Of a stretch of DNA of 64,000 nt, positions 32,685-48,035 are shown piece by piece. This DNA comes from Candidatus Thorarchaeota archaeon (GTDB taxonomy: Archaea; Asgardarchaeota; Thorarchaeia; Thorarchaeales; Thorarchaeaceae). Where the stretch lies: positions 32,001 through 96,000 of the forward strand of contig JBHLRP010000004.1 of assembly GCA_048882485.1 (NCBI GenBank), given 5' to 3'. Position numbers and translations under genes: made by a program. A model generated the notes under the pieces. The model was not told the DNA's origin and ran no database searches. It saw only the letters and a list, made by a program, of their open reading frames with translations. The number at the start of each line of letters is the position of its first letter. Position 1 is the stretch's first letter.

Positions 32685-33590
32685 ATGGCCATTGAACACT
32701 CGGATAGATTGGAGCGCGCGAAGCTCTCACTCATTGGATTATCAGTTGGAGATGCCTTTGGAGAGAGTTTCTTCGACTCTCACCCTCAATTGGTGAATCG
32801 GATAGCTGAACGCAGGATTCCGCCGGGTAGATGGCCATTTACTGATGATACGATGATGGCTTTATCGATAGTTTCTGTTCTGAAGGAATACAAGGAGATT
32901 AACCAAGACGCGCTAGCGGCAAGCTTTGCGAGAAACTTCGATCCAGTTCGGGGCTATGGCCTGGCAATGCATCATGCACTGCCGAGGATGGCTGCTGGAG
33001 AGAGATGGTCCTCCGTGGCATCCAACCTGTTTGGTGGAGAGGGCTCTTTCGGGAATGGAGCGTCAATGCGAGTGGCACCAGTGGGTGGATATTTCGCTGA
33101 TGACATTCTTGAGGCAAGAAGGAATGCAGCCTTGTCCGCGGAGGTCACACATACACATCCTGAAGCTGCAGCAGGTGCTATAGCAGTTGGACTAGCTGCT
33201 GCTTGGGCTGCCAGAATGAGCAATACCGAAGTCCCAACACCTGGCGAATTCATTGAAAAAGTAGTGAAGGGAGTACCTGATAGTATGACTAGGAGAGGAA
33301 TTCTGAAAGCACAGGAAGTTCCTCCTCTTGCTACCCCTTCTGATGCTGCCGCCATTCTGGGGTGTGGGCAACAGATTACGACTCAGGACACTGTCCCATT
33401 TGTCATTTGGTGCGCTGCACATTATTTGGAAGACTATGAAAATGCCCTCTGGAACACTGTAAGTGCGTTTGGGGATATGGATACGACATGTGCAATGGTT
33501 GGTGGTATTGTAGTTCTGTATTCTGGAATAGAAGGCATACCTAAGCAATGGCTGGTACAGCGAGAAGCCCTTCCAGATCTGCCAATCTAG
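32685..33590 (+). CDS. ADP-ribosylglycohydrolase family protein
   Basis: VGDAFG, TDDT, GNGASMR, THTHP, GDMDT. Confidence 0.92.
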   Translation: MAIEHSDRLERAKLSLIGLSVGDAFGESFFDSHPQLVNRIAERRIPPGRWPFTDDTMMALSIVSVLKEYKEINQDALAASFARNFDPVRGYGLAMHHALPRMAAGERWSSVASNLFGGEGSFGNGASMRVAPVGGYFADDILEARRNAALSAEVTHTHPEAAAGAIAVGLAAAWAARMSNTEVPTPGEFIEKVVKGVPDSMTRRGILKAQEVPPLATPSDAAAILGCGQQITTQDTVPFVIWCAAHYLEDYENALWNTVSAFGDMDTTCAMVGGIVVLYSGIEGIPKQWLVQREALPDLPI

Positions 33591-34471
33591 ATGCCAAGAA
33601 TGCCACTAATCGGGTCCAAAGAGATTCTATTCAGCTCAAGGCCCAGCTGTTCCTGATCAAGACCCATCGCTAGCCCGAGAATCTGAGTGACAAACATGGC
33701 TGGGAGTTCGAGCGACTCGCCATTATCATCCTTCACCCCAATCAACTGCACATCAAACTGTGTATGGCACGCTGGACAGTTGGTCACGAGAACATTGGCT
33801 TGGCTTTCTTTCGCCGAGATCATCTTGTCCTTCAGAACATCTGTAGCTACTTCTTCACTTGCAATCAAAAGAGGGGAACCACAGCAGTTGATCTTTGCAC
33901 CCCAAGGAACGCTTTGTGCACCAGTGAGTTCAAGGAGTTCGTCTACCTTTCTTGGGAGTTCTGGATCATCGAAACCTGCAACATTTGATGGACGAATGAG
34001 ATGACATCCGGGGTGAAATGCAATTCTGAGCCCAGTGAGGGGTTTCACAATCCTTGACTTGATATCATCTTTCATGTCATAGAGGACCTCTACAAAATGG
34101 CGTATCTTGGTCTTTCCTGTGTACTCGAGCCCCAGAGTCTTTAGGGCGCCATTGACTTTCTTTCGATAGGTTTCGTCATCATGCAATACATGGTCCGTGT
34201 CTTTTAGTGAACCAAAACATCCGTTGCAGGGAGTGACGATATCATGACCTCTGCTCTCTGCTAGAGCAATGTTCCTGCCCGACATAGAGAGCCAACTAGT
34301 TTCATCAATTGACTTCAGGACAACCGTACCGCAGCAGGATGCGCCTTCGAAGTCAATGAGTTTCACACCGAGTTCCTTGGCTACTGCACGCATCGAGGCC
34401 TCATAGTTGTTGAAGCGGTTGGGGATTGCGCACCCTAGGAATACTTCGTAGGTCTGGGCCATCTCACTCAC
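33587..34471 (-). CDS. hdrB: Heterodisulfide reductase subunit B
   Basis: FLGC, SCCG, CNGC, HPGCH, CCG, CPAC (two CCG domains). Confidence 0.92.
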   Translation of the reverse strand: MSEMAQTYEVFLGCAIPNRFNNYEASMRAVAKELGVKLIDFEGASCCGTVVLKSIDETSWLSMSGRNIALAESRGHDIVTPCNGCFGSLKDTDHVLHDDETYRKKVNGALKTLGLEYTGKTKIRHFVEVLYDMKDDIKSRIVKPLTGLRIAFHPGCHLIRPSNVAGFDDPELPRKVDELLELTGAQSVPWGAKINCCGSPLLIASEEVATDVLKDKMISAKESQANVLVTNCPACHTQFDVQLIGVKDDNGESLELPAMFVTQILGLAMGLDQEQLGLELNRISLDPISGILGI

Positions 34472-34982
34472 TCTCCTCCAACTTCATTAGACCCATTTTG
34501 TCCAAGACTTTACGTGTGTCCTCGACATTCAGCTCTGGCACGTCATCGAGCTCTAGGTCCTCACGTTCCCATTCAGTAGGTTCGTACAGTTTGCCAGTGT
34601 CATAGAGTGACTTTCTTGCAGCGACATAGCCAGGTGGTGCCATTTTCTTCTTGAATGCCATGTTCTTTAGGCCAAAGATGATGTCAGTGATGTCTATGCC
34701 TTGAGGGCATCGCTCCTGACAGGTATAACAGGTCGTGCACAACCATACCATGTCGGTTTCTAGGACTTCTTTTAGTCCAAAGAGAAGCATCCGCATCAAC
34801 TCGTGCACTTGGATGTTCACCTTGTCACTCACTGGACAGCCAGCACTGCACTTGGCGCACTGGAAGCATGCGGTGAGGTCTTTTCCACCAAGCAGTCCGG
34901 AGACCTCCTTTGTAAACTCCGCATCTAGAGCCTCGAACTTCTTTCCCTCAAAAGACTTGAACTGGCCCCACGACTCTGTCAT
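34464..34982 (-). CDS. hdrC: Heterodisulfide reductase subunit C
   Basis: CFQCAKCSAGCP, WLCTTCYTCQERCP. Confidence 0.92.
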   Translation of the reverse strand: MTESWGQFKSFEGKKFEALDAEFTKEVSGLLGGKDLTACFQCAKCSAGCPVSDKVNIQVHELMRMLLFGLKEVLETDMVWLCTTCYTCQERCPQGIDITDIIFGLKNMAFKKKMAPPGYVAARKSLYDTGKLYEPTEWEREDLELDDVPELNVEDTRKVLDKMGLMKLEESE

Positions 34983-34985
34983 ATC

Positions 34986-37900
34986 TTATCGCCTCCTAGG
35001 TCTGAGCGGGCTTGGGCCCAGTTTATCAGCGACTTCAGTCAGCTTCTTCACAGTTTCCGCCCAGATTGGGCCTTCGCTGGCACTTATTTGGGTGAACTGG
35101 AGCCTCTCAGGCTCGAGACCTGCTTTCTCAAGAATCTTCCTTGCAATGGCAAACCTTCGCTCAAAGGACACGTTCCCATCGACATAGTGACAGTCCCCGA
35201 AGTGGCAGCCCGAAACCCACACCATGTCAGCTCCCATTCTGAAAGCCTCCAGCATGTGAGTCACGCTGACTCGGCCTGTGCACATCACCCGGATGTCACG
35301 GACCGTGGTCGGCTGTTGGAACCTTGAAACACCTGCACTGTCAGCACCTGCATACGAACACCAATTACAGAGGATCGTCACTATCCTCGACTCAGTGGCT
35401 GGCATGTCCTCCAAAGATGAACGAATCTGAGCCAGTATCTGGTCGTCAGTGAAGTGCTTCATTGTGATGGCTCCGGCGGGGCATCCGGCAGCGCATTTAC
35501 CGCATCCAGCACAGAGAACCGGATTGGAAACTGCATAATCAGAGCCGCCGTCACCAGGCACGACCTCAATTGCATTGTAAGCACAGTTTATCTCACACGT
35601 ACCGCAACCAACGCAGACTTCAGGGTCAACAACAGAAACGATAGCTTCAGCCTTCCGGATGCCGCTGGCTAGAGGTATTAGTGCTCTTGATGCAGCACCT
35701 CGACCTTGAGCTACGGATTCAGCAATTGTCTTTGGAGCAGTAGCAGTCCCAGCGACATAAACACCATCTGTCTGGAAATCTACTGGTCTGAGCTTTGGAT
35801 GCGCCTCCATGAAGAACCCAGACATATTGAGTGGGACCTTGAATAGCTCAGAGATCTCCTTGTTCTTCTCCCGTGGAATCATAGCAGTTGAGAGAACAAC
35901 ATGGTCAACATCAAATGCCACCTCAGCACCGAAGACTTGGTCCATGACCTCTACACGTAGCGCCTTGTCCTTGCCTTTCTTCACGCTGGGTGGACTAGCC
36001 TGATCAAACCTGAGAAATACAACTCCCTTCTCTCGAGCCTCTCTGTATTTGTCCTCGTCCTCATAGGACACCCTGATGTCACGATAGAGATGGAAGACTC
36101 TCGAGTTGGGATACTTATCAAGCAGTTCTAGTGTGTGCTCTAGGGCGATTTTACAGCATATTCCTGAACACCAGGTCCGGCCACCTTCGAGGGACTCCTC
36201 TTCGCGAGAACCTGCACAATGAATGACCGCAAAGGTCTGACCGTCCTCGATTCCTTCACCGTCTGCTGTCTTGTGATTGAACTCGACCTCCGTGATAACA
36301 TTGTCCAGCTTCTTCAGGCCGTAAAGACCCTTTTCAGTGAGTTCAGTGGCACCTGTGGCAACAATGACAACTCCGACCTTGACCTCTTGCTTCTCCTTTC
36401 CTGTCTTTATAGTGATATCAAAATCACCAATTGAGCCCTTAGCATCAGTCACTTCGGAGTTCATCATCAACTGGATGTTCGGATTGCCTGTGACGGCCGC
36501 CTCGAACTCCTTCACTATCTCTGCGCTTGGTCTGTGATCAAAATTGACTGTTCGGAGCTCATTCAGAAAGCCTCCGACCTTGTCCTCCTTCTCGACAAGA
36601 ACCACCTTGAATCCCTTCTGAGCGATAAGGTCGGCTGCAGCCATTCCAGATACTCCGGCACCAATGACCAGGACAGTTGGTTCAATCTGGGTGACTGCTT
36701 CTTCCTGAGCCTCCAGAAGTCTTGCTCGTGCCACGGACATTCGTACAAGGTCGTTTGCCTTGGATGTTGCCTCATCCTTTGCAGCCTGATGCACCCATGA
36801 ACAGTGTTCTCTGATGTTTGCGAGCTCAAACAGATACTTGTTGAGGCCAGCTTCTTCGATTGTGGCACGGAACAGAGGCTCATGCGTTCGGGGCGTGCAA
36901 GAGGCGACAACCAAGCGGTTCAGGTTATGTTCCTTGATAGCTTCCTTGATTACATCTTGAGCGTCTGATGAACATGAGTAGAGAAGGTTCTCTGAATAGA
37001 CTACACCGGGGAGAGTACTTGCGTACTCTGTGACTTCTGCAACATCAACAGTTCCAGCGATGTTGATTCCACACGAGCAAATGATCACGCCAATCCGCGG
37101 CTCTGCAGCTATGAGTTCGAAGTCTGCTTCAGTAAGGGCTTCGCTCTCTGACGCTTCAGGCAAGACAATATCCATTGCAGCCATTGCCGCTGCTGCGCTC
37201 CCCTGAGCTACAGAGTCAGGGATATCCTTGGGGAAATTGCATGCTCCACACATGTGCACACCAGGAACGCCTGTCTGAACCGAATCGACTCCATCTCCCT
37301 TGCCTTTGATGAACCCATACTGATCTAGTTCAATCCCCAGCTTCTCCATTAATTCTGAATTCTTGTTTGGCACCATAGCAGGGCAAAGGACCACAAGGTC
37401 GTAACTGTCCTTCAAGATCTCGTGTCCCTTTGCATCACTGTGACGGACGATTAGGTTCTGGGTTTCAGGCTCCTCAGTGATGTAGCTGGGCAGGCCCTTG
37501 ACATAGTTTATCCCATACTCTGTTTCTCCTCTAACCACAAACTCTTCGAAACCCTTTCCAAAAGCTCTCATGTCATTGTATAGGATGTCAATATGTACCT
37601 CAGGAGTATGCTCTTTGGTGATGATCGCTTCTTTGGTAGCATACGTACAACATATTCTCGAACAATATGCGCAGTGGTTTGCATCTCGGCTACCGACGCA
37701 TTGAATAAACGCAATATGATGAGGCTCCTTTCCGTCGGAGGGGCGCATAACAATCCCTTTTGTGGGACCACTGGCTGAGACCATTCGTTCATACTCAAGT
37801 GCGGTCACAACATTTGGAAATCGACCATACCCATACTCCGGGACTGAGGATGCATCAAGTAGGTCATACCCCGTGGCAACAATTATCGACCCTGCATTGA

Positions 37901-38444
37901 TATTCACAATCTCATCAGGAATCTCAAAATCAATGGCCTCTGCCTTGCAGGTCTTAACGCAGGTCATGCACTCAATACAGTTCTCCATATCAATAGTAGC
38001 AATGTTAGGTACGGCTTGAGGAAACGGAATATAGGCCGCCTTTCTCATCTTCAGACCCATGTCATACTCGTTTCTCACTTCGATAGGACAGACACGCTCG
38101 CAGTCACCGCACCCAGTGCACTTGTCCAAGTCCACCCTTCTTGTGTGCTTCATAACCTTGACCATGAAATTACCAGGCTCTCCAGAAACATCAGTGACTT
38201 CCGAATATGCTAGTAGCTCAATATTGCGATGACGAGAACAATCAACCATCCATGGACCTTGAATGCACATTGAACAGTCAAGTGTGGGGAATGTCTTGTC
38301 CAGTTGGGACATATGACCTCCAATTGAGGGATTCTTCTCGACCATATAGACTTGGACGCCCATTTCAGCGAGGTCAAGTGCAGCTCGCATTCCTGCAATA
38401 CCCGCGCCGATGATGACAACTGGCTTTGTAGCAGACTCGGCCAT
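34986..38444 (-). CDS. hdrA: Tandem-module HdrA fused to C-terminal MvhD
   Basis: KTFPTLDCSMC, GKGFEEF, CSCG, CTPRTHE, REHCSWVH, second FAD motif; MvhD motifs CNWCSY, RVMCTGR, GCHFGDCHY. Confidence 0.95.
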   Translation of the reverse strand: MAESATKPVVIIGAGIAGMRAALDLAEMGVQVYMVEKNPSIGGHMSQLDKTFPTLDCSMCIQGPWMVDCSRHRNIELLAYSEVTDVSGEPGNFMVKVMKHTRRVDLDKCTGCGDCERVCPIEVRNEYDMGLKMRKAAYIPFPQAVPNIATIDMENCIECMTCVKTCKAEAIDFEIPDEIVNINAGSIIVATGYDLLDASSVPEYGYGRFPNVVTALEYERMVSASGPTKGIVMRPSDGKEPHHIAFIQCVGSRDANHCAYCSRICCTYATKEAIITKEHTPEVHIDILYNDMRAFGKGFEEFVVRGETEYGINYVKGLPSYITEEPETQNLIVRHSDAKGHEILKDSYDLVVLCPAMVPNKNSELMEKLGIELDQYGFIKGKGDGVDSVQTGVPGVHMCGACNFPKDIPDSVAQGSAAAAMAAMDIVLPEASESEALTEADFELIAAEPRIGVIICSCGINIAGTVDVAEVTEYASTLPGVVYSENLLYSCSSDAQDVIKEAIKEHNLNRLVVASCTPRTHEPLFRATIEEAGLNKYLFELANIREHCSWVHQAAKDEATSKANDLVRMSVARARLLEAQEEAVTQIEPTVLVIGAGVSGMAAADLIAQKGFKVVLVEKEDKVGGFLNELRTVNFDHRPSAEIVKEFEAAVTGNPNIQLMMNSEVTDAKGSIGDFDITIKTGKEKQEVKVGVVIVATGATELTEKGLYGLKKLDNVITEVEFNHKTADGEGIEDGQTFAVIHCAGSREEESLEGGRTWCSGICCKIALEHTLELLDKYPNSRVFHLYRDIRVSYEDEDKYREAREKGVVFLRFDQASPPSVKKGKDKALRVEVMDQVFGAEVAFDVDHVVLSTAMIPREKNKEISELFKVPLNMSGFFMEAHPKLRPVDFQTDGVYVAGTATAPKTIAESVAQGRGAASRALIPLASGIRKAEAIVSVVDPEVCVGCGTCEINCAYNAIEVVPGDGGSDYAVSNPVLCAGCGKCAAGCPAGAITMKHFTDDQILAQIRSSLEDMPATESRIVTILCNWCSYAGADSAGVSRFQQPTTVRDIRVMCTGRVSVTHMLEAFRMGADMVWVSGCHFGDCHYVDGNVSFERRFAIARKILEKAGLEPERLQFTQISASEGPIWAETVKKLTEVADKLGPSPLRPRRR

Positions 38445-38545
38445 TCGTTAGTCCACTCCGACGTAACAATGCGCATCGGTTCAATGGCATGATAAAATGT
38501 TTGTTATCGGACGATGAAATCAGACCCATAGGTTTCGAGCCCAGG

Positions 38546-38770
38546 CTATTCGAGTAGTCCTATGATTTGTGGACTCTTTGGAATGAGGGCTCTCTGAATC
38601 CTGATGGCACGCACTGGGCATTGAAACTCACAAGAGGTGCAATCAATGCATCTTTTCGCATTTACAAGCTCAGCCTTCCTTTTACTCTGGCTGAACCCCC
38701 AGACTCCTCTTGGGCACACCTTCAAGCAGTCTTGGCAACCGGAACAGGCCTCATAGTCATAAATTATCAT
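38546..38770 (-). CDS. 2x[4Fe-4S] ferredoxin in the HgcB-like position
   Basis: CSGCQDCLKVCP and CIDCTSCEFQCP; ATG 38770 with GAGGTG SD overlapping the upstream stop. Confidence 0.88.
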   Translation of the reverse strand: MIIYDYEACSGCQDCLKVCPRGVWGFSQSKRKAELVNAKRCIDCTSCEFQCPVRAIRIQRALIPKSPQIIGLLE

Positions 38771-38780
38771 GTCATTCACC

Positions 38781-39776
38781 TCAAATGATGCCCGAAGGAT
38801 AGTAGAATCCCAGGACAAAGATAACAATCAACGACCCAATACCCGCGATTATATCACGGATCATCTGGTCCTCTCCTAACTGAGGAGTAGAGCCTCCCCA
38901 ATTGAATCCCACAAACAACGACAGTCCGATTATCGCGAGACCACTTGTATCTAGCCATGCCCATTCGGTGAGTACAGCCAGGTATGTGTCTGAGAGAAAC
39001 GCGACGATTAGCCAAATGATTTTCCATACGAATAGCGCGATTACTCCAGTTATCGCACCCCTCATATAACCCGAGGAAGTTGGCATCTTTGAATCGACCA
39101 TGGCCATAAACGTGCCCAGAGTCCATGCTCCACAAATGATTAGCAAGAGGTTTGCCATCCAGAAGCTGGACCATGACCGGAAGACTCCACCCATTAGCCC
39201 GAGTGCCCAGAAGATTGGTGTCATCATCAGGAACATTGTGGTTTCAAAGAAGAGATGGGCAAGATTGCATTCCATTCGCCTGTAGAAGCCGAACTTTACA
39301 ATGCTCTGGTCGAGGGTCTTCTTGTTTCCATTTTTGATGAACCTGCCTACGTCCTCAATCTCTACGGGTCCGAAGACAGCGTTCCATCCATTGTCTGATA
39401 ATACAGCCTTTGAGATTGAGCTCGCAGCAAGTTGAGGGAGTATTAGATTCCTGTGAGAAACTACGCTCTCCAATTTGGTTGAGCTGATTGCGGTTAGTAC
39501 AGAGTCAGTGTTTACATGGCCGCCTCTGCTGCCACACCAGACATTGATTCCATGACCATCAACAACCAGAAGATGACAGCTCAAGTGCTGTTTTTCAATC
39601 TCCTCAGTCACTTTGAACACAGTCATGTAATAGTCTGTTGTGACAATCACTGGTGATTCATGATCCGCTCCATTGAATGAGAACAAACCTTGGGCTGACT
39701 TGATGGCCAATGCGGGCCACATCCATTGCGAGCCTAACAGACATGCAAAGTACTTCCAGCCTTTCTTCATAGTCAT
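38781..39776 (-). CDS. HgcA-like corrinoid-binding membrane protein (CdhD-like domain plus about 5 TM)
   Basis: SPVIVT, LLVVDGHGINVWC cap helix, L..VVSHRNLILPQLAA, FGPV, C-terminal TMs with FNWGGSTP. Confidence 0.85.
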   Translation of the reverse strand: MTMKKGWKYFACLLGSQWMWPALAIKSAQGLFSFNGADHESPVIVTTDYYMTVFKVTEEIEKQHLSCHLLVVDGHGINVWCGSRGGHVNTDSVLTAISSTKLESVVSHRNLILPQLAASSISKAVLSDNGWNAVFGPVEIEDVGRFIKNGNKKTLDQSIVKFGFYRRMECNLAHLFFETTMFLMMTPIFWALGLMGGVFRSWSSFWMANLLLIICGAWTLGTFMAMVDSKMPTSSGYMRGAITGVIALFVWKIIWLIVAFLSDTYLAVLTEWAWLDTSGLAIIGLSLFVGFNWGGSTPQLGEDQMIRDIIAGIGSLIVIFVLGFYYPSGII

Positions 39777-40423
39777 GCCTCCGCTACAAATAACTCATAG
39801 AGACCTCCCATTAGAGTCACTCTATACCTGGGGCTCAGGCCAGCAGATCTCATTGAAGCAGGAATATTGTGATGAGTGTGTGACACAACATTACTCAATC
39901 GAGAAACTAGTCTGAAGCTCAATCTTCGAATCAGCCCAAAGAAAGGTGCAATGAGTCTACTCTGTGGAATACCCTCTCCGCCAACTACCACTTGCCCGCC
40001 TCGGACAACTACTCTCGCTGCTTCGTTCAGGAAAGCCTTCAGTTGTTTCGGCTGTAGCTCGCTCACCATTAGGGTGCTCACAACCACGTCAAAGACACCA
40101 TCATCGAAATCAAGCGCAGTGGCATCTCCATATCTGACATCTATGCGTCTTGTCAGGTTGTGCTTCTTGACATGCTCTTCAGCAATTTGAAGCATTTCCT
40201 TATTGGTGTCTACTCCAATCCCACGGATGCCTCGCCTTCCAGCTTCGATTAGGAGTTTCCCAGTGCCACAACCAATGTCAAGCAATTTACCTTTCCTTGG
40301 TAAGAGATTATCAACGATATAGTTCCGGAGGGCGCTGTCCTGTTTGAATGTGAGAAGAGATATCCACCTATCATACTGAGTTGCTGCTCTATCCTCTGAT
40401 AGCTTCATCAGGATGGTTGCCAT
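39773..40423 (-). CDS. SAM-dependent methyltransferase resembling corrinoid-protein-associated (CpaM-type) methyltransferases
   Basis: LMKLSE...QYDRWISLLT N-terminus, LDIGCGTG, FDVVVSTLMVSEL; ATGA overlap with the hgcA-like gene. Confidence 0.85.
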   Translation of the reverse strand: MATILMKLSEDRAATQYDRWISLLTFKQDSALRNYIVDNLLPRKGKLLDIGCGTGKLLIEAGRRGIRGIGVDTNKEMLQIAEEHVKKHNLTRRIDVRYGDATALDFDDGVFDVVVSTLMVSELQPKQLKAFLNEAARVVVRGGQVVVGGEGIPQSRLIAPFFGLIRRLSFRLVSRLSNVVSHTHHNIPASMRSAGLSPRYRVTLMGGLYELFVAEA

Positions 40424-40489
40424 TGTGGATACGCCACATGTACTTAGGACAGTTCAGCTATATCAGGATGCTGTACTTCCAAGCGGGCT

Positions 40490-40864
40490 TCAGCCTTTGA
40501 TAATCATGGGTGTGACAAACGTCCAGAAACCTACACCGAGCAGGACTATGTAGTTCAGGTCTCCCAGACTAATGGCCAATATTCTGATGCTTGCTAAAAT
40601 GATGTAAAGCATTGATGTCACAAATGCAACAACAAGTTGGGGCCGAAGGTCAACCTTCTAATCTCGAATCTCAAAATGCCAAAACAGTACAATGGCAGCA
40701 ATAAGGACCATCACGACTGCTGCGACTTGAAAGGGAACGTTCAGTGTGGCAAATGGGGTCAAAAGTCCCTCTACGGTTGTCATGAGCGCAATAATGTAGA
40801 TTGGCGTCAGTTTGCCAAGCCTGTGAAGATAACTATCATCTGCATCAATATTTGTCAATCTCAT
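40490..40864 (-). pseudogene. Four-TM membrane protein gene with in-frame TAG at 40658-40660
   Basis: ORF 40658-40864 continues past the TAG for 55 codons (KVDLRPQLVVAFVTSMLYIILAS...VLLGVGFWTFVTPMIIKG) to TGA 40490-40492. Confidence 0.75.
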
Positions 40865-41434
40865 TTCCTCCTGACCAGACTTGTTTCAGTCTGGACTTGT
40901 CTTTCATCTCTTCAAGCGCAAGTAGGCTGCACTTGGTTGGCAATTAGTTATCGCTAGAGGACGAAACATGCTACTGCCTATGTTCGAGGGGGTTTCGTGG
41001 GCATTGATTGGCGCCAAACCATTTTCGAGTGTTTGACTTAACTATTTCAAATAGGTGACCTCATATATTACAGGGATAACGTCCGATTCGGGAGACGCAG
41101 ATGAAGTGCAGGCGGTTATACACGCGGGCATATCTTACGCGGATGAAGTCAAGAGATTATGTCGATAGGACCCATGATCTCTCCAAGATCGAGATTGTTC
41201 TACCGCAGCGAATCAAGAGTTAGTCTGCACCGAGATGTTTCATTTTGATAGTGCCACGATAGGGTGTTCTCTAGACGCCTGTCAGACTTGGCTATCGTAC
41301 CCACATGGAACAATTTGAAGCATTATGAAGGTTCTAGTAGCGCTAGAAGGGATATGGGGTCTTCTAGCAGGCAGAATTCAGTACTCTTGTTCATCTTTAT
41401 TATATATGCTCGATTTAAGACGCATCTTGGTGAT

Positions 41435-42673
41435 ATGGTGAAACATCCCAAACTTCTGAGATATGCAGCTGTGCTCGCATTTCTAGTTTTGCTGCTCTCG
41501 CCAATGAGCGTACTTGCCCAAAGTGATGACGGCGATGAGCATGAAGAAGAACATGAGCCTGAATATTCTAGAGATAGCGATGGTACAGCTTGGATACAGA
41601 CCGATATAGTCACCGTACGGCTTGATGGTGAACAGCCTATTTTCCAGTTCTGGTACTCATCCGATAGCAATGGAAGCCACGCCAGATTCCTTGTGAGCTA
41701 TCTGATGATTGTTGAGTTTGAAGATCTCAATGGTGATGGAGTCTACCAGGTTAATGAAACGTTAGACTTCGCTCCGCTCGACGCCTTTGAGTGGGCCCTT
41801 CAGACTGGAGCGGTCACTGATGAACATGGACATAACACAGAGGTCTATGCATCGTATACAAAAGGCGGACTAAGTGAAGATTGGGAAGATGATTGGTTTG
41901 AGGATTGGATGCCCGGCTATAAGGAAGTGGATGAGCCCGAAGAGCCGTTCATCCTGAGTAGCGACAGTGACATCAACTTCACTCGTTTCGAAGGAATGAC
42001 CCTTCAATTCTACGCCCATATGTACCTAGATGACTACAATGGGACGGTGAGTGATGATGAAGGGGTCAAAGCCAATTACACTGTGCTCGGCGGAGTCGAG
42101 TTGAAAATTGACATCGAAATCGGGAACTTCCCATATCTCTCTGAAACATCTCATGTCGCGATACTGAACTTCCTCCAAGAGGACGTCGCTTCCGAAGATG
42201 ACTCTGATCACCACTTCAGACTTCATGAAGATGATGAGGATGAGGACCGTGACTCTGAGGATCTAATGCCGGAGGAGGAGTGGGGAAAGAAATTCGAGGA
42301 TGCGGATGAGGATGATGATGGGCATGAGGATGATGTTCAAGAACTCTCCTTGGTTGAAGCTTCAACTGATACAACACGCGGATTCTATCGCTGGCTGGAC
42401 AAAGCTGTCATGACTCTTCCCGGGGGAAGCCAGGAGGCAGTTGATGTCGAGGCGTCCTACTGGACTAACGGAAACGCCCTACTGCTATTCTTCTCCTACC
42501 CCAACTTTGACGGGGGATCTCTCTTACACGACCCATCTATGAGGTTTGCAGAGCTTGCAGCACCTCTCGGGAATGGTGGACTCATTATTCCGGAGGGCAT
42601 TGTACTCCCGGCAATTGCTGCTATCGCGCTTGTTGCAGTAGTTGGCCTAGGAATAGCAATTAAAAAACGTTAG
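41435..42673 (+). CDS. Secreted, C-terminally anchored acidic surface protein
   Basis: Signal peptide MVKHPKLL..VLA, D/E/H-rich loops, DLNGDG Ca-binding-type loop, C-terminal TM plus KKR. Confidence 0.8.
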   Translation: MVKHPKLLRYAAVLAFLVLLLSPMSVLAQSDDGDEHEEEHEPEYSRDSDGTAWIQTDIVTVRLDGEQPIFQFWYSSDSNGSHARFLVSYLMIVEFEDLNGDGVYQVNETLDFAPLDAFEWALQTGAVTDEHGHNTEVYASYTKGGLSEDWEDDWFEDWMPGYKEVDEPEEPFILSSDSDINFTRFEGMTLQFYAHMYLDDYNGTVSDDEGVKANYTVLGGVELKIDIEIGNFPYLSETSHVAILNFLQEDVASEDDSDHHFRLHEDDEDEDRDSEDLMPEEEWGKKFEDADEDDDGHEDDVQELSLVEASTDTTRGFYRWLDKAVMTLPGGSQEAVDVEASYWTNGNALLLFFSYPNFDGGSLLHDPSMRFAELAAPLGNGGLIIPEGIVLPAIAAIALVAVVGLGIAIKKR

Positions 42674-42754: not shown

Positions 42755-43777
42755 ATGACAGGATTGCTAATGATGGCCACCAAGAGCACAAAGATATTCG
42801 CACTAACAACCGGCTTTCTTGTGATGCTAATTGTGATAGGATTTCCCATTCCAGTCCATGGTCAGACCCAAGATTTCGTCCTGTCCAATGTGGTGATAGA
42901 TGCCATTCTAAATCAGAATTGCACTACAAGCATCTCAATTGAAGCGGATATTGTGAATAATGGGTCAGTCGATTTGAGCTTCATCGACCTAAGGCTAGAT
43001 ATTCGGAGTTTGAATGTGACAAATAGTGTTCTTGGAGGCGGGCATGCTGAAACGGTTCTTGAACCCAAGGAGCGATATTCTATGGTCAGAGTTTCTTCAG
43101 CATCTTTGATACCGCTCAATAGTACAAGCCATCTCTCGCTCATGCTGACAACTAATGAACTACAACAACGACAAGATCCCTCTCCAACTGGACCATTATG
43201 TACAAATCATTTCATCTATTACATACGGCCCTTGAATGAGATACAGGGCCTCACCTTTAGGACTCACCTCCCTGCTCATGCTACATTGGAAGCGGATGCA
43301 CCAGCACCACTATTCCCCGTACCAACAAGCAATTTCACCGATGGAAATAGGATGGTCTTCACCTGGGAAACCGCCGTTCTACGTCCAGGGGAAGAACAAG
43401 CCTTCATCGTGAAGTATCAGCTGCCTACTGGGCTTTTACAAACCGACTCTTCAGAACCTGTTAATCTTCTCCTCTTTGCGGGAGTAGGTGTAGCAATTGG
43501 TGCGGTTGCTGCATTATCGATTGAAAGACTGCCTACAGCGATTAGACAGCTCCGGACAAAGAGAGAGAGCACAATCAGTGTTGTTTCAAGTCAAGAGCAG
43601 CAGGTCCTAGCTTTGCTGGATGGCAAGGGAGGATCATGTCTTCAGAGAGAAATCTATGAAGAGCTGAACATGTCTCAATCAATGGCAAGCATGCTGCTGA
43701 ACTCGCTTGAAGAGAGAGGCTTAATAAAGCGATTTAGAGATGGCCGCGAGAACATGGTCCACAAGATGGAAACTTGA
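42755..43777 (+). CDS. Membrane-anchored regulator: extracellular domain, TM, cytoplasmic winged helix
   Basis: Signal peptide, beta-rich domain, TM, then EQQVLALL..GG.CLQREI...MSQSMAS..LNSLEERGLI.R..GREN. Confidence 0.8.
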   Translation: MTGLLMMATKSTKIFALTTGFLVMLIVIGFPIPVHGQTQDFVLSNVVIDAILNQNCTTSISIEADIVNNGSVDLSFIDLRLDIRSLNVTNSVLGGGHAETVLEPKERYSMVRVSSASLIPLNSTSHLSLMLTTNELQQRQDPSPTGPLCTNHFIYYIRPLNEIQGLTFRTHLPAHATLEADAPAPLFPVPTSNFTDGNRMVFTWETAVLRPGEEQAFIVKYQLPTGLLQTDSSEPVNLLLFAGVGVAIGAVAALSIERLPTAIRQLRTKRESTISVVSSQEQQVLALLDGKGGSCLQREIYEELNMSQSMASMLLNSLEERGLIKRFRDGRENMVHKMET

Positions 43778-43794: not shown

Positions 43795-44742
43795 TTATTC
43801 AGAGGCTGCCGCATCTTGAGACGTTTCAATCTCAATACCAAGATTCTGCCAATTTGGCTGGTTCTTTCTTTGCAGATACTGCAAGTGGGTAGTAAGACCA
43901 AACTCATCAGGCTCATGTCCAAACGCCAGAGCGAGTAGCTCCATGACATGCATGAGATCGAAATGATACTCCGCCTCAAAGTGTTTCTGAATTTCAACCT
44001 GTCCAAGGTCCAGTTGTAGTTCACAGAATGGACACGGAGTAACAATGATGTCAGCTCCTCCCGCGGCTAAGAGACTTTCAAACTTCTGTCTTGTAAAGTC
44101 AAGGGCGGTCTTGACATCTGCTGTTCTAACTGCTCCTCCAGCGCCACAGCAAATTAGCTCATCTTTGTATGGCACATATGTTGCACCGGATGCCTCACAG
44201 AGTTCTCGGAATATATGAGGCCGCTCTGAATCATCTTTCTTCTTGATCAGCTTGGGCCGCATCCAATGACATCCGGGATGAAGAGCCATTCGTACACCTT
44301 CGAGTGGGCGTGTAACACGTTTTCGAATCTTGTCCAGCCCTGCCGTATTGTAGAGCGCATCAACATAATGAGTGACCTCTATTGTACCTTTGAACTCGCG
44401 CCCAATCTCAGCGAGATTCTCATTAACCGCAGTTCTAAGCTCTTCGTCATGTTTGAGCTCATGGTCAGCATCCCAAAGACTCGCAAAGCACCCATTGCAT
44501 CCAGTAGTGATATTCGTGCCTGCCTCTTCAGCTATTGTAAGGTTTCGTGCTGCTATTGATGCCCAGGTCACTTTATCAAATGATCCAAAGACTCCGGGGG
44601 CCGGACAACAGGTAGCTTTCTCCATAGGTAGAAGATCCATGTCAAGGTCTTCGAACACAAGCTCAGCAGCTTTCTGTACGCTAGGATATCTATGGGGAAT
44701 TATGCAGCCTAGGAAATGTAAGAACTTTGGTCTCTTTGCCAT
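43795..44742 (-). CDS. hdrB: Heterodisulfide reductase subunit B
   Basis: FLGC, CCPAPG, CNGC, HPGCH, CCGAGG, CPFC. Confidence 0.93.
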   Translation of the reverse strand: MAKRPKFLHFLGCIIPHRYPSVQKAAELVFEDLDMDLLPMEKATCCPAPGVFGSFDKVTWASIAARNLTIAEEAGTNITTGCNGCFASLWDADHELKHDEELRTAVNENLAEIGREFKGTIEVTHYVDALYNTAGLDKIRKRVTRPLEGVRMALHPGCHWMRPKLIKKKDDSERPHIFRELCEASGATYVPYKDELICCGAGGAVRTADVKTALDFTRQKFESLLAAGGADIIVTPCPFCELQLDLGQVEIQKHFEAEYHFDLMHVMELLALAFGHEPDEFGLTTHLQYLQRKNQPNWQNLGIEIETSQDAAASE

Positions 44743-44748
44743 ATTGTT

Positions 44749-45300
44749 TTACTCCTCCTTCTCTTCCTTCTCAGCAACAAGCTTGTCGAAACCACTCTTC
44801 TTTGCGATCTTGACAACTTCCTCAATGGCTTCAGGGTAACTGCTTGCGTTTGGTGGCTTCTCATCAAGGCCAACCTTCTTTCTTAGGCCTTCCCAAGTTT
44901 CACCACCCAGAGGAACTGCATGTCCCGTGTTGAGCACATTCATCCCCACCTTTCGATGGGGCTCAAGCATATATCCCTCAGCGACTGCGACATTTCGGAT
45001 AGCCTTGATGACCTCTGTTGGCTGAACGTCCTGAGGGCATCGATCAGTACAGGTATAGCATGTCGTGCAGTACCATAGCTCCATGCTAGAGATCACTTCT
45101 TCCTTTAGACCAAGTAGGGCCTTTCTGATGATACCTCGCACCAGGTAGTTTGTGCGAGCCCCTGCAGGACAACTCCCGCTACATGTACCACACTGATAGC
45201 AGCTCTGAATGTTAGGACCGCCTATTCTCTTGATCATGTCAACAAATTCTGTGTCGACCTCATCAATCATATGGATGCCCGGCTGGTCTGCACTAGTCAT
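44749..45300 (-). CDS. hdrC: Heterodisulfide reductase subunit C
   Basis: CYQCGTCSGSCP, CTTCYTCTDRCP, TGHAVP. Confidence 0.93.
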   Translation of the reverse strand: MTSADQPGIHMIDEVDTEFVDMIKRIGGPNIQSCYQCGTCSGSCPAGARTNYLVRGIIRKALLGLKEEVISSMELWYCTTCYTCTDRCPQDVQPTEVIKAIRNVAVAEGYMLEPHRKVGMNVLNTGHAVPLGGETWEGLRKKVGLDEKPPNASSYPEAIEEVVKIAKKSGFDKLVAEKEEKEE

Positions 45301-45409: not shown

Positions 45410-46492
45410 ATGCTCTGTCCAAATCATGAGTATGAAGGCAGAATCGCATCCAAATCAATAGGACACTGTTCAATCTGCTTGGGTACTGATGATAGTGCTA
45501 TTCATGCTGCCAAGGACAAGCACAAACAGCTCAGATTCAATCAAAACTTGGTTCCCAAAATACCTGAAAGCGGGAACATAGTATGTCCTGACTGCGGAAA
45601 CCATTGCAGACTCATTGAGGGGGAGATTGGTTACTGCAACCTCCGTGTCGTAGAGCATGGAGCGGTCACTCATCGATTTCAAGGAAAGGCGATAGTTTCA
45701 TGGTATTTTGACCCACTTCCAACCAATTGCGTGGCTGATTGGGTGTGTCCGGTCACAAAGGGCGATCCAACTTTTACGTACGCCAGACGATTCAACAATC
45801 TTGCAGTATTCTATGGGTCATGCAATTCTGATTGCCTATTCTGCCAGAATGACAGTTTCAGAGAGATGATGGCTAAGGGAGAACCCTTGATGACGCCTAG
45901 AGAATTGGCTGCAGTAGCAAACGACAGGACTGCTTGTGTTTGCTATTTCGGTGGCGATCCAGCGTGCAATCCGGTTCATTCCTTGGAAACCTCAAAGATA
46001 ATCTATGAGGAACGCCAGGCCCGAGTATGCTATGAAACCAACGGTAACATGTCACGTAAGTGGCTCGCTCGGACTGCTGAAATAGTCATGAAATCAGGGG
46101 GAACTTTCAAGTTCGACCTTAAGGCAGTGTCTCCTCGATTGTACACATCGCTCACAAGCATGACCAATACAACCGTTCTCAACAATTTCAGATTCCTCGC
46201 AAAGAAGGGATTGGAACGTGATGGAGAGTTTCTTGTAGCCAGCATTTTGCTGGTTCCTGGATATGTGGGTGTAAGTGAGGTAAGGAAGCTGTGCGAATTC
46301 ATAATGAAATGCGATTCAACGATTCCAACTGCGCTTCTTGGTTTCCATCCACATCACGCCATGTCTGATCTCCCCCGAACAAGCAGGGCTCATGCGAAGG
46401 CTGCAATAGATACAGCTGAAGATGTTGGGCTGGCAAATGTGAGAATAGGAAACATGGGTCTACTCTCGACAAATGAATACTCGTTCGACTAA
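45410..46492 (+). CDS. Radical SAM protein (AmmeMemoRadiSAM/PflA-like) with extra Cys motifs
   Basis: CNSDCLFCQN, FGGDP, ETNG; N-terminal CSIC and CPDCGNHC. Confidence 0.88.
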   Translation: MLCPNHEYEGRIASKSIGHCSICLGTDDSAIHAAKDKHKQLRFNQNLVPKIPESGNIVCPDCGNHCRLIEGEIGYCNLRVVEHGAVTHRFQGKAIVSWYFDPLPTNCVADWVCPVTKGDPTFTYARRFNNLAVFYGSCNSDCLFCQNDSFREMMAKGEPLMTPRELAAVANDRTACVCYFGGDPACNPVHSLETSKIIYEERQARVCYETNGNMSRKWLARTAEIVMKSGGTFKFDLKAVSPRLYTSLTSMTNTTVLNNFRFLAKKGLERDGEFLVASILLVPGYVGVSEVRKLCEFIMKCDSTIPTALLGFHPHHAMSDLPRTSRAHAKAAIDTAEDVGLANVRIGNMGLLSTNEYSFD

Positions 46493-46582
46493 TGCTTTCC
46501 AAAAATCTAGACGCAAAACCAATCCTTATATCTCCAAATACTCGGCGTCCTAACGGAATCCAGATTTGCGAAGGTAACCCTA

Positions 46583-47131
46583 ATGGAGAAAAGCTTCTCG
46601 GGCGAACGAATCGAGTCTGAAGACATCGACCCGCAATTCACTGAGAAAATCATTGAGGCAGGGGCTGACAGAATTCGGACTTGTATTCAGTGCGGAACAT
46701 GTTCCAGTGTTTGCCCGAGTGGACGTCGGACTGCCTTCAGGACACGTGAACTGATGAGAAAGGCGGTTCTTGGTCTCAAGGATGAAGTTCTAGCCAGTCC
46801 AGATCTTTGGCTCTGTGCGACTTGTTACACATGTCTTGAGAGATGCCCTAGAGAAATCAGGGTGACGGATGCAATAATCATCATGAGGAACATGGCTGTT
46901 GAAGAGGGGTTCATGCTTCCTCAACACAGGAAAGCCTCACAGAAGCTCATCTCAACTGGCCATGCTGTTCCAATCGATGAAGAAAATCGCGAATTGCGAA
47001 AAGACCTCGGTCTAGAGGAATTGCCACCCACTACGCACTCAAAGAAGAAGGCTCTAAAAGATGTTCAGAAGATATTGAGGAAGACTGGATTCAAGAGCCT
47101 CATTGATAGGCAGACCAAGGAGGGAGAATGA
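46583..47131 (+). CDS. hdrC: Heterodisulfide reductase subunit C
   Basis: CIQCGTCSSVCPSGRRT, CATCYTCLERCP, TGHAVP. Confidence 0.93.
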   Translation: MEKSFSGERIESEDIDPQFTEKIIEAGADRIRTCIQCGTCSSVCPSGRRTAFRTRELMRKAVLGLKDEVLASPDLWLCATCYTCLERCPREIRVTDAIIIMRNMAVEEGFMLPQHRKASQKLISTGHAVPIDEENRELRKDLGLEELPPTTHSKKKALKDVQKILRKTGFKSLIDRQTKEGE

Positions 47132-48035
47132 TGTGACAGAAACAGAGGGTCAGAAGTACTCGCTCTTCCTTGGTTGCGTCATGCCAAATCGATTCCCTAA
47201 TCTGGAGAAGAGCATCAGAGTCGTGCTCCCCCTGCTTGGAGTTGAACTCGAGGATTTGGAAGGGGCTAGTTGCTGTCCTGCACCGGGGGTAGTTCGATCA
47301 TTCGATGAACCTACATGGCTTGCTCTCGCGGCCCGGAACCTCGCCCTTGCGGAAATGGCTGGAAACGATATAATCACAGGATGCAATGGTTGCTATGGGA
47401 CGTTCAAGGAGGCACTCTCAGAGGTTCACGACCATCCTGAGAGACTGAAACAGGTGCAAGACGTCTTTGATGGAATGAATATCACTTTCAATGCAGAGGT
47501 CGATGCAAAGCACGTCATAGAGGTCATTTCCAATATGGGCGCTGAACGAATCAGGGAGCTTGTTACACATCCACTAGAGGGGATTAGGATCGCAGTTCAC
47601 TATGGGTGTCATCTCCTTAAACCAAGCAAGAACAAGCCTTGGAGAAAGACTCAGAACCATACATTTCTTGATGAATTGGTTGAAGCGACGGGTGCAGAGA
47701 GCGTAAGATACAAGGACAAGTCGCTTTGCTGTGGCGCGGGAGGAGGCATGAGGGGAGGCAATGTGGCAATCAGCGTTGATATTGCCAAAGAGAAGCTAGA
47801 CAATATGTTGGCAGCCGGAGTTGACTGTGTTCTCAATGTCTGTTCATTTTGTCATCTCCAGTATGAGCTGGCTCAACCTCAGCTGAACAAGGAGATCGGA
47901 GAGGAAAGATATCAGATACCGGTGATTTACTACACACAGCTCCTAGGCCTGGCTCTTGGTCTGGACCCAAGCGAATTGGGGCTTGACAAGCATGTTGTTA
48001 GCACAAAGCCATTATTGAACAAGATATTCAGATGA
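47103..48035 (+). CDS. hdrB: Heterodisulfide reductase subunit B (true start probably slightly downstream)
   Basis: FLGCVMPNR, SCCPAPG, CNGC, HYGCH, CCGAGGG, CSFC. Confidence 0.93.
   Translation: MIGRPRRENDVTETEGQKYSLFLGCVMPNRFPNLEKSIRVVLPLLGVELEDLEGASCCPAPGVVRSFDEPTWLALAARNLALAEMAGNDIITGCNGCYGTFKEALSEVHDHPERLKQVQDVFDGMNITFNAEVDAKHVIEVISNMGAERIRELVTHPLEGIRIAVHYGCHLLKPSKNKPWRKTQNHTFLDELVEATGAESVRYKDKSLCCGAGGGMRGGNVAISVDIAKEKLDNMLAAGVDCVLNVCSFCHLQYELAQPQLNKEIGEERYQIPVIYYTQLLGLALGLDPSELGLDKHVVSTKPLLNKIFR

Follow-up and report, generated by a model that had tools for sequence, protein, structure and literature searches.

A putative split variant of the CpaM/HgcAB-like corrinoid methyl-transfer system restricted to Asgard archaea

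Fused paralogs of HgcAB, the protein pair of mercury (Hg) methylation, have been known since 2015, and what HgcAB and its paralogs natively do is a standing question both in mercury biogeochemistry and in B12 enzymology. In previous work, purified HgcAB was methylated by S-adenosylmethionine (SAM) and a Co-S bond was present, and cysteines C73, C94 and C95 of HgcB were required for Hg methylation (PMC11588087). A fused relative from P. furiosus did not methylate Hg according to Podar 2015, in the form in which that study is cited in PMC10083202, and in the phylogeny of Lin et al. 2023, the clade of fused HgcAB included Asgard sequences (PMC10083202). Two NCBIfam models, CpaM ('corrinoid protein-associated methyltransferase', NF043040) and HgcAB_like ('HgcAB-like fusion protein', NF043039), already link a methyltransferase to an HgcA-like protein plus ferredoxin; in the searchable literature, we found no paper describing CpaM or a methyltransferase beside fused hgcAB, the pairing being recorded only in NCBIfam models. 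Here we analyze three adjacent genes that encode a divergent CpaM-type methyltransferase, an HgcA-like corrinoid membrane protein and an HgcB-like ferredoxin (the triplet, Table 1). They lie in a stretch of 64,000 nucleotides (the window) of Candidatus Thorarchaeota assembly GCA_048882485.1 (contig JBHLRP010000004.1, positions 32,001 to 96,000).

An earlier examination of this DNA without database searches (the sequence-only reading) had presented the triplet as a candidate new B12-dependent methylation system. This claim of novelty did not stand, since the association of methyltransferase, HgcA-like protein and ferredoxin is already curated and the system is not new in kind. Judging from its sequence, the triplet is a divergent, split and Asgard-restricted variant of the catalogued, uncharacterised CpaM/HgcAB-like system. 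What appears to be new is a long-branch subfamily restricted to Thorarchaeota, scoring below the curated cut-offs, distributed over three separate genes, and having its own cap motif and a Cys-free ferredoxin tail. Our preferred interpretation, to which we give a probability of roughly 0.6, is that the three polypeptides form a corrinoid methyl-transfer machine that is anchored in the membrane, driven by SAM and paralogous to the mercury methylase HgcAB. Compared with the CpaM plus HgcAB-like fusion system, the window carries the same modules in the same order, but in three genes rather than two. With regard to the single polypeptide described by NF043039 (cut-off 285 bits), the match is split between the HgcA-like protein (174 bits) and the ferredoxin (55 bits).

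The HgcA-like protein displayed the layout anticipated from the letters alone, i.e. a corrinoid domain, a cysteine (Cys81) in a short helix, the segment HRNLILPQLAA (residues 108-118) and five transmembrane (TM) helices. Pfam model PF03599 matched residues 24-143 (E 2e-17) at its B12-binding end, and the B12 domain alone matched NF003195 (CdhE/AcsC, cut-off 306 bits) with 86.8 bits at model positions 323-448. The top NCBIfam match was HgcAB_like. An AlphaFold2 (AF2) model built on a 30-sequence alignment (predicted local distance difference test, pLDDT, 88; predicted template modelling score 0.82) presented a Rossmann-like domain, then the short helix bearing Cys81 (79-84) and TM helices at 164-193, 198-230, 236-261, 265-295 and 302-330. 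Its best Foldseek match, over the full length, was 9a0b_A, the deposited HgcAB integrative model (E 7.5e-12). Next came the B12 domains of the large subunit of the corrinoid iron-sulfur protein (CFeSP; 4djd_C, 4c1n_G, 2h9a_A and 2ycl_A), for which about 125-135 columns were aligned with root-mean-square deviations of 1.3-3.0 A, and a PDB sequence search retrieved CFeSP only and no solved HgcA. The domain had been called CdhD-like; the CFeSP-type corrinoid fold held, while the wording was loose, as the fold is that of the C-terminal corrinoid domain of CdhE/AcsC, the large subunit of CFeSP.

The similarity to CFeSP and its methyltransferase MeTr (PDB 4djd, 2ycl) includes, besides this fold, the logic of a separate methyltransferase loading a corrinoid carrier, which is what we propose for the triplet. 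In contrast to the window's protein, however, CFeSP is a soluble protein with an N-terminal Fe-S domain plus a TIM barrel and without a Cys ligand, and its loader uses methyl-tetrahydrofolate and not SAM. A role of the triplet as CFeSP or in a Wood-Ljungdahl pathway was considered and rejected in view of the TM domain, the Cys cap, the SAM-type methyltransferase and the presence of a canonical CdhE elsewhere in the genome (549 bits).

Sequence comparisons confirmed that the cap reads NVWCGSRGG rather than N(V/I)WCA(A/G)GK. The form GIN(V/A)WCGS(R/K)G was found in all 38 sequences of the Thorarchaeota clade (Thor clade) that contained the region, later positions varying slightly. The cap is WCAAGK in true HgcA, WC(A/G)(A/S)xG in the HgcAB-like fusions, WCSAAGG in Hodarchaeales-type (Hod) proteins and WCAARG or WCAAGGG in proteins in which the methyltransferase is fused to the HgcA-like part. 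On the other hand, G76, N78, W80 and C81 were invariant across 30 family members, and these residues, together with the LxLPQL segment (L111-L116), G136 and P137, extend family-wide, true HgcA included. The same is true in the TM part for an N-x-x-G-x-T-P loop and for F162, R167 and G295, which are invariant. These shared membrane residues show that the TM domain is homologous to that of true HgcA and not just similar, and they suggest that it probably holds a functional site common to the family.

To place the protein, we built trees with a CdhE outgroup (150 rows from a quick search, and 66 rows from a careful search under the LG+C20 model with posterior mean site frequencies), in which the label of true HgcA was given to the 93 sequences reading WC(A/S)(A/G)GK. 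The true-HgcA clade excluded the window's protein with an SH-like approximate likelihood ratio test (SH-aLRT) value of 100 in both the 150-row and the 66-row quick trees, and the label pattern of this exclusion was found in 200 out of 200 bootstrap trees of the careful analysis. The protein was instead located inside a clade of HgcAB-like and methyltransferase-HgcA fusions (85 rows with SH-aLRT 98 in the 150-row tree; SH-aLRT 94 in the 66-row tree), a position that agrees with the phylogeny of Lin et al. 2023 (PMC10083202). Within it, the Thor clade was recovered as monophyletic (100/100), with a long stem that measures 1.1-1.3 changes per column. Its sister was the Hod group in the 150-row tree (SH-aLRT 83), whereas the fork was not settled in the 66-row tree. 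Thus the proposal that this is an HgcA paralog and not a bona fide HgcA held on three counts: 144.2 bits with NF040863 (HgcA) for a cut-off of 275, a position outside a clade supported at 100/100, and a cap without AAGK. Scoring with the hgcA hidden Markov model and phylogeny both put the protein outside bona fide HgcA.

The ferredoxin matched HgcB (NF040864) best, with 57 bits for a cut-off of 99, followed by the tail of NF043039, and Pfam identified it as a 2x[4Fe-4S] dicluster protein. It contains two CxxCxxCxxxCP motifs and exactly eight cysteines, none of them between or after the motifs, in keeping with the earlier remark that the extra C-terminal cysteines are lacking. This was the case in all 19 Thor-clade ferredoxins recovered, in which a Cys-free tail (RAIRIERALIPKSPxIIG) is conserved. 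By comparison, a true HgcB bears GVGC plus a terminal CC. The absence of C-terminal Cys pairs is shared with 52 of the 62 tails of the HgcAB-like fusions.

These data bear on whether the triplet could be a functional mercury methylase, that is, an HgcAB orthologue with an accessory gene. When compared with HgcAB of Pseudodesulfovibrio mercurii ND132 (NF040863/NF040864), the triplet shows homology in both the Cys-capped corrinoid domain and the five-helix TM domain, its partner ferredoxin matches HgcB better than any other family, and a sister position to true HgcA was not rejected by the approximately unbiased (AU) test (p 0.22). However, the HgcA cap is WCAAGK, AAGK being absent from the window's cap, and the ferredoxin has no equivalents of HgcB C73, C94 and C95 (PMC11588087), i.e. 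of C73 and the C-terminal CC. Moreover, the score of 144 bits is well under the HgcA cut-off, the true-HgcA clade excludes the protein, and the fused P. furiosus relative was inactive on Hg, as far as can be taken from the citation in PMC10083202. On this balance, we regard a mercury methylase as very improbable. The missing HgcB cysteines and the inactivity of the P. furiosus fusion also make Hg an unlikely acceptor for the preferred machine, and the triplet probably methylates something other than mercury.

For the methyltransferase, CpaM was the top NCBIfam match, aligned end to end (3-215 of 216) with 145.2 bits, below the curated cut-off of 180 but twice the score of any other methyltransferase family, the next one being UbiE (72 bits). 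Pfam recognized a Methyltransf_25 domain (E 7e-22), and motif I LDxGCGTG (G51, G53, G55) and D72 were invariant among 24 homologs, from which we predict a class I methyltransferase with intact SAM-binding motifs. The AF2 model (pLDDT 84) showed a generic Coq5/UbiE-like fold and matched SAM-bound methyltransferases, and this generic class I fold, Coq5- or RebM-like, yielded no clue about the substrate. An HPxH motif is common to Thor and Hod methyltransferases and absent from bacterial CpaM. Judging from the CpaM score, the family appears to be specific to this context. A complex prediction of the methyltransferase with residues 1-165 of the HgcA-like protein, based on alignments of our own, gave a score of 0.00, which is evidence neither way.

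The gene organization is compact. The ATGA overlap between the first two genes and the GAGGTG over the next stop, on which the sequence-only reading had based a tight coupling of the three genes, were both confirmed, and in relatives the methyltransferase and HgcA-like genes likewise abut or overlap. The mechanical open reading frame of the ferredoxin extends over 38546..38827, and its real start is the ATG at 38770. A survey of other genomes bore out the synteny of the triplet. Near-identical HgcA-like proteins have been deposited as 'hypothetical protein' from Candidatus Thorarchaeota metagenome-assembled genomes (MAGs). A word-indexed search yielded 39 clusters at 55-99% identity, all the named ones belonging to Thorarchaeota or 'Promethearchaeota'. 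The matches of this Thor clade ended at E 1e-82 with a 221-aa fragment (at 1e-113 for full-length proteins), and the gap after them extended to 1e-40. Past the gap there were proteins of 319-327 aa, one of them named Hodarchaeales by NCBI, and then methyltransferase-HgcA fusions, HgcAB-like fusions and true HgcA (E 1e-23 to 1e-30). An exhaustive search of 1.84 billion representatives produced 863 relatives, with only one at >50% identity and five at E <= 1e-30. In a set of 400 genomes from the phylum, members of the close clade turned up in the window's genus, namely in 15 of its 16 other genomes (one match being a 77-residue fragment at a contig end), and in three further genera of the same family (1/3, 2/7 and 4/28 genomes). 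This restriction of the long-branch clade to one Thorarchaeota family is a further difference from the CpaM plus HgcAB-like fusion system.

The order methyltransferase, HgcA-like protein, ferredoxin was kept in 22 out of 22 Thor-clade loci, as far as the contigs reach, and in 8 out of 8 Hod loci at 27-32% identity. The methyltransferase gene adjoined the HgcA-like gene in 28 of these 30 loci, and in the remaining two (L030, L036) the contig ends before its position. Within neighborhoods of +/-8 kb, the three families were the only ones common to Thor and Hod loci, save a family without annotation (F4) that was found in one Thor and seven Hod loci, so that no fourth family is widely shared by both. 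Outside these lineages, a CpaM above cut-off (251-287 vs 180 bits) was located just upstream of an HgcAB-like fusion in L046/L047, where one further methyltransferase gene lies in between, L048/L049 and L050. A true hgcA locus that we examined reads ArsR-HgcA-HgcB and has no adjacent methyltransferase. At L048/L049 (GCA_006240825.1 contig plus a Logan contig), the CpaM and fusion pair has an ArsR-type regulator upstream; downstream there are an Acr3-type exporter, two LMWPc genes of the arsenate-reductase type and another ArsR. Fusions occur as well. In a Chloroflexota MAG, a methyltransferase-HgcA fusion (P0111, named CpaM by NCBI) is followed by an 82-aa ferredoxin, and in 5 of 36 methyltransferase-HgcA proteins the chain extends to include the ferredoxin as well (P0142, P0143, P0148, P0151 and P0208; 582-644 aa). 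The kept gene order and the fusions in several combinations are strong evidence, at the level of sequence, that the three products would act as one unit. The earlier suggestion that the methyltransferase belongs with the corrinoid protein is supported by these data, i.e. synteny in 30 loci of two Asgard lineages and fusions with or without the ferredoxin.

The genome of the window has a second locus of this kind (L001; G000:C128, 1369-3420, - strand), in which a 571-aa methyltransferase-HgcA-like fusion abuts a 111-aa ferredoxin. The components are the same as in the triplet, with the methyltransferase covalently fused here and in the Chloroflexota P0111, which argues that methyltransferase and corrinoid protein act together. 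The L001 fusion has the cap GINVWCAARG and its ferredoxin keeps the extra cysteines of the HgcB type (NIGCGC and C-terminal CCS), whereas the triplet has neither WCAARG nor GCGC plus a C-terminal CC. The L001 fusion also branches closer to true HgcA than the window's gene (SH-aLRT 83). Judged by these cysteines, soft-metal chemistry would be more plausible for the L001 copy than for the triplet. Since relatives have frames of 577-582 aa, most genomes of the genus may carry both paralogs.

We infer that the HgcA-like protein binds a cobamide, that the ferredoxin is the reductant and the methyltransferase the loader, and that the methyl group moves from SAM through the cofactor to an acceptor. 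In this scheme, the small ferredoxin would deliver low-potential electrons to the cobamide on the HgcA-like protein to give Co(I). The CpaM-like methyltransferase would bind SAM and present it to Co(I), producing CH3-Co(III) with Cys81 as axial ligand. The methyl group would then be passed to an acceptor that gains access to the cofactor at the membrane domain with its five helices. The proposed SAM step leans on the result with HgcAB and SAM (PMC11588087) and on the fusion order, in which the methyltransferase is directly N-terminal to the corrinoid domain.

Several points weigh against this interpretation. Methyltransferase, HgcA-like protein and ferredoxin all score under their NCBIfam cut-offs (145 vs 180, 174 vs 285 and 57 vs 99 bits). 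The long Thor stem is a further difficulty, and the deep position of the clade is not secure because the AU test did not reject the Thor clade plus true HgcA as one clade (delta lnL, i.e. log-likelihood, 14; p 0.22). Finally, true HgcAB accepts SAM without a separate methyltransferase (PMC11588087). It follows from the latter that a separate loader would not obviously be needed, and that the methyltransferase could act on the substrate or the product instead. The corrinoid protein might then be methylated by SAM directly, as HgcAB is with no extra protein (PMC11588087), or work reductively, for example in dehalogenation, and CCl4 dechlorination by HgcAB was described in a 2026 preprint (bioRxiv 10.64898/2026.04.26.720869). 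A generic small-molecule methyltransferase fold like that of Coq5 or RebM would also suit this role. However, the fusions join the methyltransferase straight to the N-terminus of the corrinoid domain, an arrangement suited to SAM delivery to the cofactor, and the methyltransferase family is specific to its context, with a CpaM score twice that of any other family. We therefore consider the substrate-side role a live rival, albeit an unlikely one.

The substrates put forward in the sequence-only reading (a metal or metalloid other than Hg, a thiol or a membrane lipid) are guesses. If the acceptor of the preferred machine were a metalloid (As(III), Sb or Se, for example), the triplet would be a membrane-bound detoxification methylase. 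The ars context of CpaM and the HgcAB-like fusion in the bacterial MAG locus L048/L049 points in this direction, as do the ArsR-type regulators that also precede true hgcAB (the locus examined here; PMC7438021) and the GNAT, EamA and MFS exporter genes that precede the Hod-clade triplets in seven loci. Nevertheless, the ars linkage was found in only one of the three HgcAB-like fusion loci examined, no ars genes were present within +/-8 kb of the Thor loci, and a soft metalloid would find no free cysteines on the Thor ferredoxin. We find a metalloid acceptor rather unlikely on this evidence. About as improbable is that the Thor triplet has acquired a task of its own as a membrane-bound, SAM-loaded Cys-cobamide methyltransferase acting on an organic molecule, for instance a thiol cofactor or a membrane lipid or quinone, with Co(I) regenerated by the flanking electron-bifurcating Hdr-MvhD complexes. 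If this were true, methyl transfer would be coupled to the energy metabolism of Asgard archaea and not to metal detoxification.

A related proposal is that the Thor triplet cooperates with the Hdr-like complexes encoded on its flanks. Electron bifurcation driven by Hdr would provide low-potential electrons for Co(I), or else the methyl group would go to a thiol, with HdrB-type CCG proteins taking care of the corresponding disulfide. At 100 bp downstream of the triplet begins a co-directional HdrA-MvhD/HdrC/HdrB set, and the same strand carries a second HdrC/HdrB pair upstream, a layout kept in one genus (g1) and, despite insertions, partly in one genome of another (g6), where the HdrA homolog is four genes further on. 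The layout is not kept, however, in the Thor loci of genera g9 and g12 or in any Hod locus, for which reason the adjacency may reflect inherited gene order only, and a sequence reading of the 100-bp gap disclosed an AT-rich, TATA-like stretch that suggests a promoter of its own for hdrA. A functional link with these complexes is doubtful in our opinion, and the downstream set could at most be named as a possible electron-supply partner.

The preferred interpretation of the triplet as a SAM-driven corrinoid methyl-transfer machine has several implications. The locus and its fused relatives give genomic support to the 2024 result that SAM feeds an HgcA-type cobamide. Forms linked to a methyltransferase are placed to either side of true HgcA in the trees, and the link to SAM may therefore be older than mercury methylation. 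As the Thor form is split into three small proteins that can be expressed one by one, the loader, carrier and reductase roles could be separated. There is also an annotation gap, all three genes scoring under NCBIfam cut-offs and their homologs being deposited as 'hypothetical protein'. In metagenomic surveys of Hg risk, this HgcA look-alike should not be counted as a methylator.

Table 1. Features of the triplet and of its surroundings (positions in the window)
Feature	Positions	Strand	Remarks
Methyltransferase, class I SAM-dependent, divergent CpaM	39773..40423	-	216 aa (P0001)
HgcA-like corrinoid membrane protein	38781..39776	-	331 aa (P0002)
HgcB-like 2x[4Fe-4S] ferredoxin without extra Cys	38546..38770	-	74 aa
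ATGA, HgcA-like ATG overlapping methyltransferase TGA	39773..39776	-	Sequence reading
GAGGTG ribosome-binding site	38777..38782	-	Overlaps HgcA-like TGA (38781-38783), 6 nt before ferredoxin ATG
Corrinoid-binding domain, residues 24-152	39321..39707	-	Pfam and NCBIfam alignments, Foldseek matches
Cap-helix motif GINVWCGSRGG	39519..39551	-	Cys81 codon at 39534-39536
Five-helix TM domain, residues 164-330	38787..39287	-	AF2 secondary structure
HdrA(x2)-MvhD fusion	34986..38444	-	1152 aa; Pfam FlpD/MvhD, Pyr_redox_2, Fer4 and CCG matches across the Hdr set
HdrC-like	34464..34982	-	Hdr set downstream of triplet
HdrB-like	33587..34471	-	Hdr set downstream of triplet
Small 4-TM protein, possible accessory gene	40490..40864	-	66 bp upstream of methyltransferase
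469-aa protein	41264-42673	+	No Pfam match; between upstream HdrB-like gene and triplet
DUF7343/MarR-type regulator	42755-43777	+	Between upstream HdrB-like gene and triplet
Second HdrC/HdrB pair	43795-45300	-	Upstream of triplet
Radical SAM gene and third HdrC/HdrB pair	45410-48035	+	Opposite strand to triplet

The surroundings of the triplet (Table 1) include several other genes. An Rfam scan of positions 33000-42000 (E <= 0.1) gave no match, neither to riboswitches for cobalamin or SAM nor to a SECIS element. The small 4-TM gene is interrupted by an in-frame TAG (40658-40660), where the seven loci of close relatives (L010-L016) read Q; the TAG may represent a nonsense mutation, an error of the assembly or a case of recoding. 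It was not found upstream of the methyltransferase in more distant loci and, for this reason, it would not belong to the core. The gene of the 469-aa protein and the DUF7343/MarR gene look like an insertion, as they are present in four genus-level loci only. The gene contexts are lineage-specific and none is general: Hdr genes in Thor loci of two genera, GNAT/EamA/MFS in Hod loci and ars in one bacterial locus. In the Hod-type loci L061-L067 (e.g. L061, 4363-9000), the genes of a GNAT acetyltransferase, EamA and an MFS transporter precede the triplet on the same strand, and the small F4 family follows it on the opposite one.

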